A stretch of 64,000 nt of DNA from Treponema sp. (GCA_024693715.1 JAILKS010000052.1:4214-68213), one strand, 5' to 3'. Shown: positions 34,307 through 63,984, counted from the first letter of the stretch. The notes: generated by a model not told the origin, from the letters alone. Made by a program: numbers and translations.

Positions 34307-34388
<82 letters not shown>

Positions 34389-56589: not shown

Positions 56590-57561
56590 ATGAAAATTAT
56601 ATATGCAGGAAGCCCTGAGGCGGCGAAAGAAACATTACAGATTCTCATTGAAAATCAGAATAAATATGGTTTTGAAGTTGCCGGAGTTTTATCTAATCCT
56701 CCGTCGGCACAGGGACGGCATAAAGAATTGATTAATACTCCTGTTGCCAATCTTGCCCTGGAAAATAATCTTCCGCTTTTTACTTTTGAACATTTAGATT
56801 CAGCTGCACGCGAACAGATTTTACCTCTCGGTGCAGATTTACTTGTTTGTTTTGCGTATGGTCATATTTTTGGACCTAAATTTCTTGAGATGTTTAAAAT
56901 GGGCGGTATTAATCTTCATCCTTCGTTATTGCCGAAATATCGTGGTTGTACTCCAATTCCTGCAGCAATTTTGAATAGAGATAAAGAAACCGGTTTTACA
57001 GTGCAAAGACTTTCGCTTAAAATGGATGAGGGAGAGATTCTTGCCCAGAAGAAGGTAATTCTTAATGGGACAGAAACAGCAGATTCTCTTTTGCATGATG
57101 CGGCGGTTGAAGGTGCACAGCTGATTTTAGATATTATCAGGGAAGCGTCTGTAAAGGGAAAGCTTGAAAAAGGGGTTTCTCAAAAAGGCGATTCGTCATA
57201 TACTGTACAAATAACAAAAGAAGATGCACGTATTAACTGGAATAATTGTGCAGTTGATATTGAAGCAAAAATCAGGGCATATTATTCTGAACCATGCTGC
57301 TGGACTATATATGAAGGTCAGCCGTTGAAAATTCATCAGTCTAAGGTTGTTGAAAACATTACGGATGATTATGAAGCTGAACCTTCGGGAAAAGTTCTTC
57401 TTTTTAGTAAAAGTGAAGGAATCTTCGTAAAAACCGGAAACGGGATTTTGAGTCTTTTGACCTTGCAGAAGCAGGGAAAAAAGGCTATGAATTATAAAGA
57501 CTTTATGAATGGTGCCAGAGATTTTATTGGTACTGTTTTAGGAGCAAATGATGAAATTTAA
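56590..57561 (+). CDS. fmt: Methionyl-tRNA formyltransferase
   Basis: IIYAGSP, INLHPSLLPKYRG, MDEG, IRAY motifs; follows def. Confidence 0.95.
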   Translation: MKIIYAGSPEAAKETLQILIENQNKYGFEVAGVLSNPPSAQGRHKELINTPVANLALENNLPLFTFEHLDSAAREQILPLGADLLVCFAYGHIFGPKFLEMFKMGGINLHPSLLPKYRGCTPIPAAILNRDKETGFTVQRLSLKMDEGEILAQKKVILNGTETADSLLHDAAVEGAQLILDIIREASVKGKLEKGVSQKGDSSYTVQITKEDARINWNNCAVDIEAKIRAYYSEPCCWTIYEGQPLKIHQSKVVENITDDYEAEPSGKVLLFSKSEGIFVKTGNGILSLLTLQKQGKKAMNYKDFMNGARDFIGTVLGANDEI

Positions 57562-58567
57562 TGAAAACAAAAAGAAAGAAAGAAAATTAAAGAAGCTTTC
57601 AAGAATTAATATTGAAGAGAATTATGAAAAAGTTCAGTCAAATGTACCTGCATTATTCTGGGTATGTTTTTCTGCTTTTTTAGTAATGATAGTATTCTGC
57701 TGCGGAGTTTTCTTTGCAAAGGTTAAAGGCTCTGAAAAGGTTCTTGTTCCTAATGTAGTTGGAATGCAGCTTGAAGATGCCTTGATTGAAATGCAGGTAA
57801 ATCGTCTTTATCCGAACATCACGCTTCGTTTTTCCGAAGATGGAGTTCCTAAAGGAACAGTAATGGAACAGAATCCTAAGGCAGATTCTCTTGTAAAAGC
57901 AAACCGTTATGTTGATTTAGTTATAAGTCGTGGAGCAGAAAAAGAAGTTGTGCAGGATGTTGTCGGAAAACTTTATGAACAGATTGAATCTACTGAAAAC
58001 ATCATTAAAGCAGAACCTCAGTATATAATTAATTCAAAGCCGGCAGGTACAATCCTTGCCCAATATCCCCGGAGCGGATACAAAGTCTCAAGTCCTGTTC
58101 AATTAATGACAGTTGTAAGCTATGGTCCTGAAGCAGAAAAAGCACAGGTGCCTGATGTAACAGGAATGACAGTTACAGATCTTATTGAAGAAATAAAGCA
58201 GTCAAATGTTGTTTTTAATGTTTCTGCTCATTTTGCAAATGAAAATGAAGAATTTGGAAGAGTTATTTCACAGACTGTAAAGCCGTCTTCAGTTGTTAAT
58301 AAATATTCACGTGTTGATGTAGAACTTGCACTTCCAAAGGAATTACAGGAAAACAACAGATATGGTATTTTTTCCAGAACACTGGAGGAATATCCTTTTC
58401 CGGTTGATATGAAGCTTGTTTTTAAGGCATCTGACGGAACTGAAACAGAATTGCTTTCTTTCAATCATCCTGGTGGAAGCCTGACTATTCCATATATACT
58501 TCCTCCTGGAGCAACAATCATGCTTTTAGTACATGATAGTGTAATAGAAAAAGAAATAGTAGGATAA
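57548..58567 (+). CDS. Membrane-anchored PASTA-repeat protein without kinase domain
   Basis: One TM; VPNVVGM..QNPK, DVVGK..QYPR and VPDVTGM..QTVKP PASTA units. Confidence 0.88.
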   Translation: MMKFNENKKKERKLKKLSRINIEENYEKVQSNVPALFWVCFSAFLVMIVFCCGVFFAKVKGSEKVLVPNVVGMQLEDALIEMQVNRLYPNITLRFSEDGVPKGTVMEQNPKADSLVKANRYVDLVISRGAEKEVVQDVVGKLYEQIESTENIIKAEPQYIINSKPAGTILAQYPRSGYKVSSPVQLMTVVSYGPEAEKAQVPDVTGMTVTDLIEEIKQSNVVFNVSAHFANENEEFGRVISQTVKPSSVVNKYSRVDVELALPKELQENNRYGIFSRTLEEYPFPVDMKLVFKASDGTETELLSFNHPGGSLTIPYILPPGATIMLLVHDSVIEKEIVG

Positions 58568-58569
58568 AT

Positions 58570-60066
58570 ATGAGTCAGCCGCTTGTTTGTATGACTTTGA
58601 CAGGACATACTCTTGCAGAGAATGTTCAGATTGTCAGAAAATACGAGAAATTTATCGATGTTGTTGAATTACGTGTTGATTATCTTGATGAAGATGAACA
58701 GCTTATCGTAAGGCGTTTTCCATCGATGATAAGACTCCCTTGTATTCTGACAATTCGAAGGGATATAGACGGCGGACTTTTTAACGGCGGTGAATTTGCG
58801 AGGACAAATCTTTTTGGAAGGGCACTTGCCTTTGCAAATCAGGATAGAGCCAAGAATTTTGCTTACGTAGATTTTGAAGAAGATTTTAATATTCCGAGTA
58901 TTCAGGATTCGGCACTTGCATTCGGTGTAAAAATAATCAGAAGTTATCATAATATGAAGGAACCTGTTTATAATCTTAAGGAATTATGCGACAGGATGAG
59001 AAAAACAGGCTACGAGATTCCTAAAATTGCTTTTAAACCGAGAAAGCTTTCGGATGTTCTGAATCTATTTACAGAAGGACAGGCAATGAAGGAATATGAT
59101 CATATTCTTTGTGCAATGGGTGCAGAAGGGCTGCCGTCAAGAATTCTTTCTGCTTTGTCTGATTCTTATCTGACATATACATCTCCTGAAGAAATGCAGG
59201 GGAATGTTTCAAATCTTGGACATTTAGATCCGATTACATTAAATAATCTTTATAATTTTAAATCAATTTCTGAAGAAACAGACATTTATGGAATTACCGG
59301 CTGGCCAATGGCAAAAACATCAAGCCCTGAAATTCATAATTCAGGATTTAAAAATCATAATCTTGACAGTGTTTTTATTCCTGTAAGGTCGCCGCTTGTT
59401 TCAGAAGCGTTGAATTTTTCAGAAAAAATCGGAATTAAAGGTTTATCTGTAACGACTCCACATAAGGAATCAGTTTTATTTTATGTAAATAATCAGACAC
59501 CGGAAGTACAACAGATAGGCGCCTGCAATACTGTAATCAGAAAGGATAATAAATGGATTGCCTATAATACAGATGCTTATGGTTTTAAACGTGCTCTTGA
59601 AGAATTTATTGGTGTCAAAAAATATAAAAAAAAGGTTGCAGTTATAGGAGCGGGTGGAGCGGCAAAGGCTGTATGTTATGTTTTGAAGCAGATGGGCGCA
59701 AAGGTATGTATTTTTAATCGTTCGGTTGAGCATGCACGCACAATTGCAGAAAAATTTTATTTTAAGTACAGTTCTCTTAATGTAGATTGCATTGAAAAGC
59801 TTCACGAATATTCAAATCTTATTATTCAGACAACTCCGGTTGGAATGAACTTTGATGCAGTTTCTGAAGAAATAGACCCGATTCCTTTTTATAGCTTTGA
59901 CGGCACCGAATTACTTTTTGATCTTATTTATAAACCTGCAATAACTCCTTTGATGAAGAGAGCATCGCTTGCCGGTTGCAGGGTTTGTAATGGATATAAA
60001 ATGCTTGAATATCAGGCTTATGAACAATTTAAATTATTTACGGGAATAAATTATGAATCAAACTGA
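58570..60066 (+). CDS. aroD/aroE: Bifunctional type I 3-dehydroquinate dehydratase / shikimate dehydrogenase
   Basis: VELRVD, LTIRR..DGG, SYHN, KIA (AroD); SPEIHN, SVTTPHK, GACNT, NTDAYG, GAGGAA, DLIYKP (AroE). Confidence 0.93.
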   Translation: MSQPLVCMTLTGHTLAENVQIVRKYEKFIDVVELRVDYLDEDEQLIVRRFPSMIRLPCILTIRRDIDGGLFNGGEFARTNLFGRALAFANQDRAKNFAYVDFEEDFNIPSIQDSALAFGVKIIRSYHNMKEPVYNLKELCDRMRKTGYEIPKIAFKPRKLSDVLNLFTEGQAMKEYDHILCAMGAEGLPSRILSALSDSYLTYTSPEEMQGNVSNLGHLDPITLNNLYNFKSISEETDIYGITGWPMAKTSSPEIHNSGFKNHNLDSVFIPVRSPLVSEALNFSEKIGIKGLSVTTPHKESVLFYVNNQTPEVQQIGACNTVIRKDNKWIAYNTDAYGFKRALEEFIGVKKYKKKVAVIGAGGAAKAVCYVLKQMGAKVCIFNRSVEHARTIAEKFYFKYSSLNVDCIEKLHEYSNLIIQTTPVGMNFDAVSEEIDPIPFYSFDGTELLFDLIYKPAITPLMKRASLAGCRVCNGYKMLEYQAYEQFKLFTGINYESN

Positions 60067-60775
60067 ACAGAAAATTCTTGCTGCAAATACTGCAGTTGAT
60101 ACATTAATTGAAAAAGGCTTGATTTTCAGCGGAATGAAAATAGGTCTTGGAACAGGTTCTACTGCAATGCCTGCTGTAAAACGACTTGCTGAACATATTA
60201 ATAAAGGTGATTTAAAAGATATCAAGGCTGTAGTAACCAGCTTTCAGACACAGAATGCCTGTCAGGATTACGGTATTCCTGTTTATTCTATGAATGATAA
60301 AATAATAAATGGTCAACTTGATCTTGCGATAGACGGTGCAGATGAGGTAACTCCTGAATGTTTTTGCATTAAAGGCGGCGGTGGTGCTCATGTCCGTGAA
60401 AAAATAGTTGAATATAATTCAAAGATTTTTGTAGTAGTTGCAGATTCCTCTAAGGCTGTAGAAACACTTGGTACGAAATTTCCTGTTCCTGTTGAAATTA
60501 TCGGTGAAGCAAGAGTCCCTGTAACAAATGCCTTGAACGCACTTGGGGCCGATTGTGTTCTTCGTGAAGGGGTTAGAAAATGTGGACCTGTTATTACAGA
60601 CAACGGAAATCAAATTCTTGACTGTACATGGAAATCACCGATAGATGCAGTTCAGATGGAAGATAAAATTAATTCGATTGCCGGTGTAGTTGAAAACGGT
60701 CTTTTTTCAAAAAATAAACCAATTGTTTTCATTGCAAAAGAAGACGGTAAAGTTGAAATCAGAAATTTAAAGTAA
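60053..60775 (+). CDS. rpiA: Ribose-5-phosphate isomerase A
   Basis: GLGTGST, DGADEV, KGGGGA..REKIV, VITDNGN, GVVENGLF. Confidence 0.96.
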   Translation: MNQTEQKILAANTAVDTLIEKGLIFSGMKIGLGTGSTAMPAVKRLAEHINKGDLKDIKAVVTSFQTQNACQDYGIPVYSMNDKIINGQLDLAIDGADEVTPECFCIKGGGGAHVREKIVEYNSKIFVVVADSSKAVETLGTKFPVPVEIIGEARVPVTNALNALGADCVLREGVRKCGPVITDNGNQILDCTWKSPIDAVQMEDKINSIAGVVENGLFSKNKPIVFIAKEDGKVEIRNLK

Positions 60776-60776
60776 G

Positions 60777-62144
60777 ATGTTTAATCCGTTTAGTGAAGAA
60801 CTTGCACGTCATTATTGTCTTGATTTGATTGATGATATTGAAAATGGTGCGCTTATACTTAAGCAGATATCACGAATCAGTTATGAAAGAATGAATCAGG
60901 GAATAATGACAGGCTCTCTTGTATGCTGGGACAGTTCCAGTAAAAAGAGGATTGTCCTTCATGCTGTAAGTGGAATCTCAAAGCAGATTTATACAAAGAA
61001 ATCAAAAAGTGTTTATGTAAAAAACGGTATAAAACATATTATTGTACAACCGGTTGCCAGTGGAAAAAAAATAACACGCGCATTACGAAAAAATGACAGA
61101 AGGATTCATCTTCTCACCGATAAAATCAACAGTTGTGAAGCAGTACAGAAAAAAAATGTAGAAAAAATCAGTTTGATGAATATCCGGAAAAGATTATGTG
61201 ATGAATCATTAAAAAAAGTTTTTTCACTTTATAAATTTCATTGTGCCGGTAAAAAAACAATCACCTTGAATCAGATTATAAAGCAAAGAAAAGCTCTGGT
61301 GCCAACCGGAACAGGAGATTGCTGTGAGCCAAAGCTGTTGAATTATGCATTTAAGAAAAATCTTGAAATAATCAGTATGGCACAGGTCTTTTATGATTCA
61401 GAAAAGAAAATGGAATCTGTTGAGCCATGCGATGAACGCTGTGGAATTCTTTTTCCATATCTTCTTGGCGTCGAAATTGTTTATCAGGATTCTGCAATTG
61501 TTGTTGTAAATAAACCGTCCGGATTACTGTCTGTGCGTGGAAAAAAACAAAAGGATTGTGTCGAACAGCGTATCATAAATATCTATAAGGATTGCATTGA
61601 GCAGTGTGCTGTTCATCGTCTTGATATGGAAACTTCTGGACTTCTGGTGCTTGCAAGAACAAAGGATGCTCATAGAGCCTTGAACATTGAATTTATGAAT
61701 TCACTTGTAAAGAAAAAATACATTGCAGTTCTTGACGGGATTCTTGAAAGAACAGATGAAAAATATAAAACACTTGAGAGCGGCAGATTTGAATTACCTT
61801 TCCGGCTTGATGTAAATAATCGTCCGCATCAGATTTATGATGAAAAAGACGGAAAAAACGGGATTACGTTATGGCAGAAGGATGGAATTGCCTGTGTAAC
61901 TGTTGACGGTAATAAAAAAATCAGGGGTTCAAAAATCATTTTTACACCGCTGACCGGTCGTACACATCAGCTCAGGCTTGCAAGTGCAGATTCACACGGT
62001 TTTAATCTTCCTATAATGGGAGATTCTCTTTATGGAAAGTGTGAAAAAAATCAAAGGCTCATGCTTCATGCCTCTGAAATTGAATTTTTGCATCCTGTCT
62101 CAGGGCAGAAGATGATTTTTAAAAAGGATTTTATTTTCAGTTAG
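60777..62144 (+). CDS. RluA-family pseudouridine synthase with N-terminal deaminase-like domain (TrcP-like)
   Basis: C-terminal VVVNKPSGL, HRLD, GRTHQLR, GDSLYG, LMLHA. N-terminal GTGDCCEPKLL...PCDERC matches CxE + PCxxxC zinc-deaminase motifs. Confidence 0.85.
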   Translation: MFNPFSEELARHYCLDLIDDIENGALILKQISRISYERMNQGIMTGSLVCWDSSSKKRIVLHAVSGISKQIYTKKSKSVYVKNGIKHIIVQPVASGKKITRALRKNDRRIHLLTDKINSCEAVQKKNVEKISLMNIRKRLCDESLKKVFSLYKFHCAGKKTITLNQIIKQRKALVPTGTGDCCEPKLLNYAFKKNLEIISMAQVFYDSEKKMESVEPCDERCGILFPYLLGVEIVYQDSAIVVVNKPSGLLSVRGKKQKDCVEQRIINIYKDCIEQCAVHRLDMETSGLLVLARTKDAHRALNIEFMNSLVKKKYIAVLDGILERTDEKYKTLESGRFELPFRLDVNNRPHQIYDEKDGKNGITLWQKDGIACVTVDGNKKIRGSKIIFTPLTGRTHQLRLASADSHGFNLPIMGDSLYGKCEKNQRLMLHASEIEFLHPVSGQKMIFKKDFIFS

Positions 62145-63984
62145 CTTTTTTCTGGTAGCTTGCCTTTACTGCTTCTACGAAAAGACTGTTCTGGTCACTT
62201 CGTTCCGGAACAGAGAACATCGGTTTACCGTCATTCGGCGATATTCTGTAAATGTTCATTGGATCAGTTGTATATGCAGGACTTCCAGGATTGTTTATCC
62301 ACCAGTCTAAAACTGATACAAAGCAAAGGGTATATTTCAGAAGATTTGCATTTGTTGCATTTGTCGTCGCAGTTTTATTCTGCGCTCCAAGAAGAACATC
62401 AAGTCGTTTTGAAACTTCATTCTGAATGTCAAATTTATAATGATCCCATGGATTTTCAAGAAGGGGTACTGTTCCTTTTGTTGCTGCAGCCTGGTCACAT
62501 TGTTTAACTACAATCGTAAGGTATTTTCTTGCAAAATCTGTGCGGTGGAACATCGGACGGTATTTACTTTCATCTGAAGGACGTTCCAGAAGAAGCTGGT
62601 CAAATTTGAAGTTAGGCAAAAAGTGATAGGTTGTCTGCCATAAAAGGGAAGTGAGTATTTTTTTACCGAGCATTGATTTTTCAAAATCTGCCTGTGAATA
62701 AACTGAATTAGTGAAGTTTGTCAGAGGCTGGCAGTAAAGACGTTCAAAGGTGTCTTCTCTGTATGCCGACCATTCATCAAGAATATCCTGGATAGTATCG
62801 GCATCATTTTTTGCACCGTCTGCCTTTGCAAATTTCATGTTACGACAGCTCTGGAAGCAGTCTTCGATAATTCTTTGAAGGACTATCACTACTTGAAGAG
62901 GGTTTTCCGGTGAAAGACAGTTGAAGCCGTCTGCAAATTTATACAGAGGCTGGAAGTAAGGAAATAAATCAGGGTGTTCATCAAGACGGTCAAAGCCTGC
63001 TTCAGGGAACATTTGATTTAATAGCTTCAGTCCTGTTATTACCGATGAATCTTTTGCACCCTTTGTCGGAGCAGCAGGCTTTGCTTTATCTTCTTTTTGT
63101 GACGATTCATCCTTTTCCTTATCCGGAAGAAGAAGATCGAATTTATGAAGTCCGGTAAATTTCAAGATTTCGGCAACCTTTGCAGAGAAGAAATCAGGAT
63201 AATCCTCATAAGTATCAGAGCACATCCTCATTAAAATAGGATAGAATTTTTTGATTACTTCAGTATCAATGTAAAGCCATTCAGTAATTGCCTGTTTTGC
63301 CATTGTAGAAAGCTTTTCTTTCGGTGAGTCCGGATAGTTTACCTCATCATTGTAGATTTCCTTGATGAGCTTAGGAATCTTATTGTTTCCGTAATAGTAG
63401 ATAGTCATCAAAGGCTTGTATACAAGTCGCATAAGTTGTGTCAGATCACAAAGAAGCATTGGCTGCTGAACCTGTTTGAGTGATATATATTCTGTCTTGA
63501 TGCCTGACATTCCCCATTCAGCAATCATTCTTAAAAATTTAAATTTTGCTTCAGAACCGTTAACGATTTTAGATTTGTATGTTGCCGGAGCAATCTGAAT
63601 TAAAGTTTTTGTTACGGTGATAAAAGCTTCCATGTGCTCAATTGCTTTTTTAATTGTGTAGTCATAGAACGAATAGTTGATTTTTTCAGTTCCGTTTTTC
63701 TGAAGGGCACGAAGGAAATTAAAAAATCCGTAGTTTGGTTTGATTTTATATTCAGGCGACATCATAACCTTATCGAACATGTTATTTACTTTTTTAGGAA
63801 TGTTCGGTAAATCTTCACGAATATGACGTCTGGCAGGAGTTACAGATGGTTTTGAGGAGCTTGAGGAACCTGATGATGAAGATGAACTTGTTGTAGTTCT
63901 GACAAGTCTTCCGCTGTTATTATGGTTTCCATTGCCGCTGCTTGAACGTTCGTACATTACTTCACCGCCAAGCTTTTTTGCCAT
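62137..63984 (-). CDS. Conserved-looking hypothetical protein (helical); true start uncertain
   Basis: 615-aa ORF with a Ser-rich N-terminus. The frame stays open to the window edge upstream of ATG 63984, so the gene may be 5'-truncated here. Confidence 0.7.
   Translation of the reverse strand: MAKKLGGEVMYERSSSGNGNHNNSGRLVRTTTSSSSSSGSSSSSKPSVTPARRHIREDLPNIPKKVNNMFDKVMMSPEYKIKPNYGFFNFLRALQKNGTEKINYSFYDYTIKKAIEHMEAFITVTKTLIQIAPATYKSKIVNGSEAKFKFLRMIAEWGMSGIKTEYISLKQVQQPMLLCDLTQLMRLVYKPLMTIYYYGNNKIPKLIKEIYNDEVNYPDSPKEKLSTMAKQAITEWLYIDTEVIKKFYPILMRMCSDTYEDYPDFFSAKVAEILKFTGLHKFDLLLPDKEKDESSQKEDKAKPAAPTKGAKDSSVITGLKLLNQMFPEAGFDRLDEHPDLFPYFQPLYKFADGFNCLSPENPLQVVIVLQRIIEDCFQSCRNMKFAKADGAKNDADTIQDILDEWSAYREDTFERLYCQPLTNFTNSVYSQADFEKSMLGKKILTSLLWQTTYHFLPNFKFDQLLLERPSDESKYRPMFHRTDFARKYLTIVVKQCDQAAATKGTVPLLENPWDHYKFDIQNEVSKRLDVLLGAQNKTATTNATNANLLKYTLCFVSVLDWWINNPGSPAYTTDPMNIYRISPNDGKPMFSVPERSDQNSLFVEAVKASYQKKAN

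Follow-up and report, generated by a model that had tools for sequence, protein, structure and literature searches.

A compact TrcP-like deaminase–pseudouridine synthase fusion in Treponema, a candidate RNA editor with a putatively relocated catalytic glutamate

We describe here a gene in a 64,000-nucleotide stretch of a Treponema sp. assembly (GCA_024693715.1, JAILKS010000052.1:4214-68213; referred to below as the window) that is predicted to encode a compact relative of the tRNA editing enzyme TrcP. The gene codes for a protein of 455 residues, of which the N-terminal 232 are clearly homologous by sequence comparison to the TrcP deaminase domain and the remainder is an RluA-type pseudouridine synthase. 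The best explanation is that the protein is a TrcP-family editor converting cytidine to pseudouridine in tRNA, with its catalytic glutamate transferred to the site where canonical deaminases have theirs, and we give this reading a probability of about 0.58.

We know of no editor other than TrcP that converts cytidine to pseudouridine, and to our knowledge its deaminase domain is an orphan, the catalytic glutamate of which is in an unusual place. In the canonical cytidine, deoxycytidine monophosphate (dCMP) and tRNA deaminases, the glutamate acting as proton shuttle lies two residues after a zinc ligand, in the first turn of the zinc helix. In Vibrio cholerae, TrcP edits C32 of tRNA-Tyr to pseudouridine (Kimura et al. 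2022, PMC9553926), and its deaminase domain is split (residues 1–114 and 250–339) by a long helical domain of three helices (residues 115–249), with a basic patch at the tip (R168, R171, K172, R175, K201 and K208) that is required for tRNA binding and for editing (PMC9553926). C-to-U editing requires each of residues C282, C324, C328 and E303, and the cysteines are proposed to be zinc ligands; E303 is off the canonical C-x-E position, a difference that the authors stress, and they suggest that the pocket may have followed a distinct evolutionary pathway (PMC9553926). The V. cholerae motif is given as GECAA -16- LAEFWWG -14- PACQSKCQP in Supplementary Fig. 1, where the motifs of Shewanella and Bacteroides TrcP are also among those printed, and the residue two positions after the first cysteine is alanine or glycine in all eight species (PMC9553926).

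The gene and the parts of its product are as follows, with secondary structure taken from the predicted model:

60777–62144, + strand: the whole gene as it stands in the list of open reading frames (ORFs), 455 codons, with a TrcP-like deaminase domain fused to an RluA-type pseudouridine synthase in its product
60777–61061, + strand: N-terminal lobe of the TrcP-like deaminase domain (residues 1–95), helix 8–22 and then strands
61062–61223, + strand: two-helix basic hairpin (residues 96–149), helices 96–121 and 128–149
61224–61472, + strand: C-terminal lobe of the deaminase domain (residues 150–232), with PTGTGD-C182-C183-E184, M-A-Q203-VFY and P217-C218-DER-C222
61320–61322, + strand: Cys182, predicted first zinc ligand, equivalent to TrcP C282; invariant (74/74 and 71/71, see below)
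61326–61328, + strand: Glu184 (GAG), at the canonical deaminase C-x-E position; alanine or glycine in TrcP
61383–61385, + strand: Gln203 (CAG), at the position of TrcP E303 (zinc cysteine +21), in strand 197–206
61419–61421, + strand: Val215, the third site changing with the switch; at the position of the tyrosine in the TrcP FYPxC motif
61428–61442, + strand: Cys218-x3-Cys222, predicted second and third zinc ligands, equivalent to TrcP C324 and C328; invariant, at the start of helix 222–230
61473–62141, + strand: RluA-type pseudouridine synthase domain (about residues 233–455), with HRLD and the catalytic Asp283 at 61623–61625

An earlier note on this DNA had proposed a shortened TrcP-like editor from a set of short motifs, and every string that it quoted is present in the ORF at the residue number given. 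These are GIMTGSLVC (residues 42–50), LHAVSG (61–66), the helical stretch RKRLCDESLKKVFSLYKF (137–154), GTGD-C182-C183-E184-PKLLNYA (with TGC TGT GAG read directly from the DNA at 61320–61328), P217-C218-DER-C222 and HRLD (280–283). The first two overlap the invariant GxMxGxLV (42–49) and SG (65–66) of the N-terminal lobe, and the hairpin of residues 96–149 has 16 lysines and arginines and six aspartates and glutamates, as counted from the translation.

Routine searches do not recognise the N-terminal part of the protein. Residues 1–232 have no match in Pfam or NCBIfam in a whole-protein scan, and give coiled-coil noise only (E>0.1) when compared with the PDB either as a single sequence or as an N-terminal profile; a search with the N-terminal 233 residues finds Treponema-like metagenome proteins only. 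When 1.84 billion representatives are searched with a profile of the domain, 1255 clusters are retrieved (E≤1e-3), and these fall into three classes: short fusions of ~420–480 residues, long fusions of 540–570 residues, and stand-alone proteins of 250–275 residues. The long forms belong to Bacteroides, Parabacteroides and Reichenbachiella, among other genera, which fits the reported distribution of TrcP; they bear the published TrcP motif exactly and match the hidden Markov model profile at ~1e-30. Comparison of the Treponema N-terminal profile with the long TrcP-like N-terminal domains using hhalign gives a probability of 100% (E 6.7e-46, 205 columns), with the lobe of residues 1–95 aligned to the N-terminal part of the long proteins and a gap of ~95 residues where the short forms lack part of the helical region. 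The hairpin is thus the shortened counterpart of the three-helix domain of TrcP, by ~95 residues, and both the homology and the much shorter helical region that had been proposed are borne out. The register to TrcP itself was taken from the supplementary motif table of the paper, as the V. cholerae sequence is absent among the matches listed; in this register the protein reads G-D-C182-C183-E184 -16- M-A-Q203-V-F-Y-D -9- E-P-C218-D-E-R-C222, and its three cysteines fall on those of TrcP (C182 on C282, C218 and C222 on C324 and C328).

For closer relatives we used the best 80 of 577 confirmed matches in species-representative genomes (the Treponema loci, denoted by L numbers), almost all of which are from rumen or gut Treponema; the closest of these 80 has 75% identity and is from a water-buffalo omasum metagenome-assembled genome. 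Residues M44, G46, S65, G66, P176–C183, C218 and C222 are invariant in the 74 Treponema homologues, and this conservation, together with the 1255 profile clusters, indicates that the N-terminal motifs are not chance occurrences. The three cysteines are likewise invariant in 71/71 proteins of a broad alignment, and this invariance extends to all of the Glu184/Gln203 proteins. The spirochaetes T. pallidum, T. denticola, Brachyspira and Borrelia are all scored as TrcP-negative in the published species table (PMC9553926), so that the rumen and gut Treponema clade goes unnoted there.

Assignment of the C-terminal half is straightforward. Residues 233–450 match Pfam PF00849 (1.1e-22) and, by sequence, RluA in the PDB (2i82; 1e-26). 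The NCBIfam models of the RluA family also match, but under their equivalog cut-offs (for NF007543, RluA, 112.9 bits at 1.6e-32 against a cut-off of 286 bits), so that we assign the domain to the RluA family and not to the RluA orthologues. The AlphaFold model of the full-length protein is confident, with a predicted local distance difference test score (pLDDT) of 94.1 and a predicted template-modelling score (pTM) of 0.90, and its top Foldseek match is also 2i82 (E 1.4e-21, template-modelling (TM) score 0.83, 36% identity). The HRLD motif is invariant in 74/74 Treponema homologues and the catalytic Asp283 is intact, in agreement with the earlier description of this domain; it is closest to RluA, the enzyme of U32.

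The active site of the deaminase domain departs from that of TrcP. The candidate signature put forward for it, C-x-E followed by P-C-x-x-(x)-C with a possible catalytic glutamate, is accurate as to the residues, but C-x-E is not a signature of TrcP, in which E303 is at zinc cysteine +21 and the C-x-E position is occupied by alanine or glycine. A glutamate is present at the E303 position (203 in the numbering used here) in 65 of 74 Treponema and 245 of 255 database proteins, and the window protein is among those without it. Position 184 is conversely alanine in 63 of the 74 Treponema homologues, and in ~85–90% of the family. The residue pairs at positions 184/203 are:

74 Treponema proteins: Ala/Glu 63; Glu/Gln 9; Glu/Glu 0; Glu/Cys 0; other/Glu 2 (Thr/Glu 1, Gly/Glu 1); neither 0
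255 database proteins: Ala/Glu 227; Glu/Gln 9; Glu/Glu 5; Glu/Cys 1; other/Glu 13; neither 0

Among these ~330 homologues, every protein without Glu203 has Glu184, proteins with both glutamates exist, and there are none without either. In neighbour-joining trees of 104 full-length short forms, constructed with columns 184 and 203 masked and interpreted by Fitch parsimony, at least three losses of Glu203 are found in 100 of 100 bootstraps (with a mode of five), and every loss is on a Glu184 background. A third position changes along with these two: Tyr215, which is invariant across the long-form alignment, is present in 74 of 89 proteins with Glu203 and is replaced by valine or isoleucine in 11 of 13 without it. 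Gly212 and Gly207 are also often replaced where Glu203 is lost. From these substitutions the whole pocket appears to have been remodelled, while the zinc cysteines, PTGTGD (as PTGTGDCC), PKLL and PCDERC stay invariant in the switched proteins. As a sequence pattern this is what a compensated relocation of the catalytic residue would predict, and one that simple decay does not readily explain. We therefore propose Glu184 as the relocated catalytic glutamate, which is plausible by reason of its strict co-occurrence with loss of Glu203, our one ground for the assignment.

The model of the N-terminal domain is also confident (pLDDT 95.1, pTM 0.91). It places C182 just ahead of helix 183–193 and E184 in the first turn of that helix, Q203 in strand 197–206, and C218 and C222 at the start of helix 222–230; the helix-strand-helix order in this prediction is that of the deaminase zinc site.

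There is little reason to doubt the sequence itself. Proteins that are 99–100% identical are encoded in six independent assemblies from different sources, all of which have C-C-E and Q203, and the gene is present in bovine and sheep gut metagenomes. A contig from a bovine gut metatranscriptome spans positions 61250–61521 with no differences from the window, showing that the gene is transcribed and, together with the six concordant assemblies, excluding a sequencing error. No variant is seen at codons 184 or 203 in four metagenome and metatranscriptome runs, and the variants in reads near the active site, at the Pro217 and Cys222 codons, are synonymous only.

The proposed mechanism is as follows. 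The protein would have a zinc-dependent cytidine deaminase domain (residues 1–95 and 150–232) interrupted by the hairpin and fused to the RluA-type domain. The deaminase domain would convert a cytidine to uridine in the anticodon loop of a tRNA, by analogy at C32 and in a tRNA whose loop would then read U-U-N-N-A-A-A, and the RluA-type domain would isomerise the resulting uridine to pseudouridine. With the distal tethering patch absent, the tRNA would be held differently from the way it is in TrcP. The catalytic glutamate would have shifted from the beta3 strand, at zinc cysteine +21, to position 184 in the first turn of the zinc helix, by a route from Ala/Glu through Glu/Glu to Glu/Gln, probably by way of double-glutamate intermediates and with replacement of Tyr215. 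A broader proposal, which we put forward tentatively and at somewhat less than even odds, is of repeated shifts of the catalytic glutamate inside this single deaminase family, its two sites being the beta3 strand and the zinc-helix C-x-E position that all canonical cytidine, adenosine and dCMP deaminases use. These shifts would have passed through such intermediates, with loss of the tyrosine.

Several observations weigh against the assignment of the window protein as an active C32 editor. The defining catalytic residue of TrcP, E303, is Gln203 here, and by the rule established for TrcP such a protein should not edit; the TrcP segment that carries the essential basic patch also has no counterpart in it. 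The relationship to canonical deaminases is faint: a Foldseek search of the PDB with the N-terminal model, helical insert present, gives no match at E≤1e-3, and the 50 best matches include no deaminase. For TrcP, too, deaminase structures were matched only once the authors had removed the helical insert (PMC9553926). The canonical deaminase pattern [HC][AV]E...PCxxC is found nowhere in the window and the 80 loci, and the profile compared by hhalign was instead one of seven Cdd and blasticidin-S deaminases, each checked residue by residue against PDB entries; it gives a weak match (P 0.0075–0.018, probability 3–5%) that is not significant alone. This match, the sole local one, aligns C182 with C53, E184 with E55, P217-C218 with P85-C86, and C222 with C89 of Bacillus subtilis Cdd, and being in register is consistent with the proposed relocation of the glutamate, not proof of it. 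Neighbour-joining trees with long branches may overcount independent switches. Lastly, the sole tRNA gene in the window, a tRNA-Leu(GAG) at 34307–34388 and 26 kb from the gene, already has U32. There is no tRNA-Tyr gene in the 64-kb window or in the 60 related loci scanned, which have Leu, Lys and Thr tRNAs only.

Of the alternative explanations, the one that survives best, although we regard it as unlikely, is that the deaminase is dead: Gln203 would inactivate it, and the domain would serve as a zinc-stabilised tRNA-binding module guiding the RluA-type domain to U32 of particular tRNAs, making the protein a specialised pseudouridine synthase and not an editor. A change from glutamate to glutamine at the catalytic position is a classic inactivating change in deaminases and the standard catalytic knock-out, E303 is essential in TrcP, and cysteines can persist for a structural zinc. 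The TrcP N-terminal domain tethers tRNA and promotes pseudouridylation even when fused to RluA (PMC9553926), so that a non-catalytic role is plausible. Loss of activity does not, however, account for the finding that the proteins without Glu203 (ten from the database and nine from Treponema) all have Glu184, at a position that is usually alanine, with no protein lacking both. Decay also leaves unexplained the recurrence of the switch in at least three lineages and the invariance of PTGTGDCC, PKLL and PCDERC in those lineages.

Less probable again is that the protein is an active editor with some other substrate, at a different position, in a different set of tRNAs or in rRNA, and that it might stop at the C-to-U step. 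RluA also acts on U746 of 23S rRNA. The absence of ~95 residues of the tRNA-tethering helical domain speaks for another substrate, as do the differences at the active-site neighbours 207, 212 and 215 in the Glu184/Gln203 group and the existence of deaminase-only homologues, which we read as the domain working apart from a pseudouridine synthase. The proximity of the pseudouridine synthase domain to RluA (36% identity to 2i82) speaks against it, and the fact that no full-length Treponema homologue has lost the fusion favours the same coupled reaction, at a site of the RluA type. An error of sequencing or assembly at Q203 or E184, or a decaying pseudogene, has nothing in its favour beyond the single base that separates CAG from GAG, and we reject it as extremely improbable given the six concordant assemblies with the same two residues, the four runs with no variant at either codon and synonymous variants only nearby, the intact and transcribed reading frame, and the confident model.

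If Glu184 is indeed catalytic, then the two active-site layouts are interconvertible, although distinct evolutionary pathways were suggested by the TrcP authors, and if the layouts interconvert, the TrcP deaminase domain would fall within the classical deaminase superfamily. The natural set of Ala/Glu, Glu/Glu and Glu/Gln proteins at positions 184 and 203 makes the independent origin of the TrcP pocket testable. A catalytic Glu184 would also mean that the short-hairpin forms edit tRNA in the absence of the tethering patch on which V. cholerae TrcP depends. The Treponema clade would represent a minimal version of the enzyme, with most of the tRNA-tethering helical domain gone, that tests the substrate-channelling model. 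As scaffolds for base editors, compact zinc deaminases in which the active site is laid out differently are of practical interest too.

The family is considerably larger than this clade. There are at least 7993 long-form clusters in the database, in addition to the 577 confirmed stretches in the species-representative genomes scanned, and from their sequences it is probable that thousands of proteins now named only as pseudouridine synthases are RNA editors. The prediction that routine annotation would miss the deaminase part is correct, in that the database names of the related proteins refer to pseudouridine synthase only.

The stand-alone homologues of 250–275 residues (P0019, P0056, P0059, P0060, P0064, P0069, P0071, P0072, P0074, P0076, P0087, and L081 at 418–1215) have no pseudouridine synthase domain; they have a short hairpin, and all have Ala184 and Glu203. 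Their N-terminal part bears an additional motif, G-Y-C-x-x-C-x-x-x-H, resembling a small zinc knuckle. One of them (P0019) is a complete gene on its contig. These proteins could be C-to-U-only editors. Several homologues have long low-complexity inserts within the deaminase domain, between the beta3 strand and P-C-x3-C (~70 residues in L054; also in L036, L046, L049, L059, L061, P0010 and P0012), so this loop tolerates large insertions. A typical Treponema short form is also found on a contig labelled Anaerobutyricum sp. (L031, CAVHTI010000001.1), where it clusters with that of Treponema sp. JC4, and this is probably a mis-binned or mislabelled assembly.

The genes upstream of the editor gene (57548–60775, + strand) encode a PASTA-domain protein, a fused type I 3-dehydroquinase/shikimate dehydrogenase (aroD-aroE), and rpiA. 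Their reading frames overlap or abut, and the ATG start codon of the 455-residue ORF is 1 nt past the rpiA stop codon, which suggests that the four form a single operon. The order PASTA-aroDE-rpiA-editor is present in 52–53 of the 80 Treponema loci, from which we take the gene to be a vertically inherited housekeeping gene and not a mobile one. On the other side, a convergent ORF of 615 codons (62137–63984, – strand) overlaps the 3′ end of the gene by 8 nt; its product has a serine-rich N-terminus and no Pfam match, and homologues are present in only 8 of 80 Treponema loci. In six of the loci (L006, L011, L015, L021, L024 and L034) a tRNA-Leu(GAG) and/or a tRNA-Lys(UUU) gene lies ~0.8–1.7 kb downstream of the editor gene.

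Among known systems, the Treponema short forms with Ala184 and Glu203 (e.g. T. bryantii L008 and L018, and T. saccharophilum L068) share with the window protein its length class, short hairpin, synteny and invariant motifs, and have 38–55% identity to it in the N-terminal domain. Those proteins retain the strand glutamate, the alanine at C-x-E and Tyr215, all three of which are swapped in the window protein and in ~12% of the clade. With RluA (the E. coli tRNA pseudouridine-32 and 23S pseudouridine-746 synthase, 2i82) it has in common the fold, the HRLD aspartate and GRTHQLR, but RluA itself has no N-terminal deaminase domain. The canonical zinc cytidine deaminases (Cdd 1jtk; blasticidin-S deaminase 1wn5 and 3oj6) have a similar three-cysteine pattern of C-x-E ... 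P-C-x(2-3)-C, with 33 residues between the first and second ligands in Cdd and 36 in the window protein, and in both there is a glutamate two residues past the first ligand at the start of a helix. There is no significant sequence similarity between them, however, and the last two cysteines are C-x2-C in the canonical enzymes and C-x3-C here. The window protein also has no strands after the last zinc helix, because the pseudouridine synthase begins at residue 233, and its strand order therefore differs from theirs. The order of parts is the same as in V. cholerae TrcP, a split deaminase domain with a helical insert and then an RluA-type domain. In both, 16 residues separate G-D/E-C-x-x from the x-A-[E/Q] strand, and the last two cysteines are C-x3-C, although these are at +36 and +40 from the first in the window protein and at +42 and +46 in TrcP. 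The window protein is shorter (455 residues, against ~540–570 for TrcP-like proteins), with a hairpin of ~54 residues in place of three long helices (~135 residues), and it has glutamine for E303, a glutamate at zinc cysteine +2, and valine for the tyrosine of FYPxC. With both the E303-equivalent glutamate and the long helical domain missing, we do not classify it as a plain TrcP orthologue, and regard it as a compact member of the TrcP family with a candidate catalytic glutamate at the C-x-E position.

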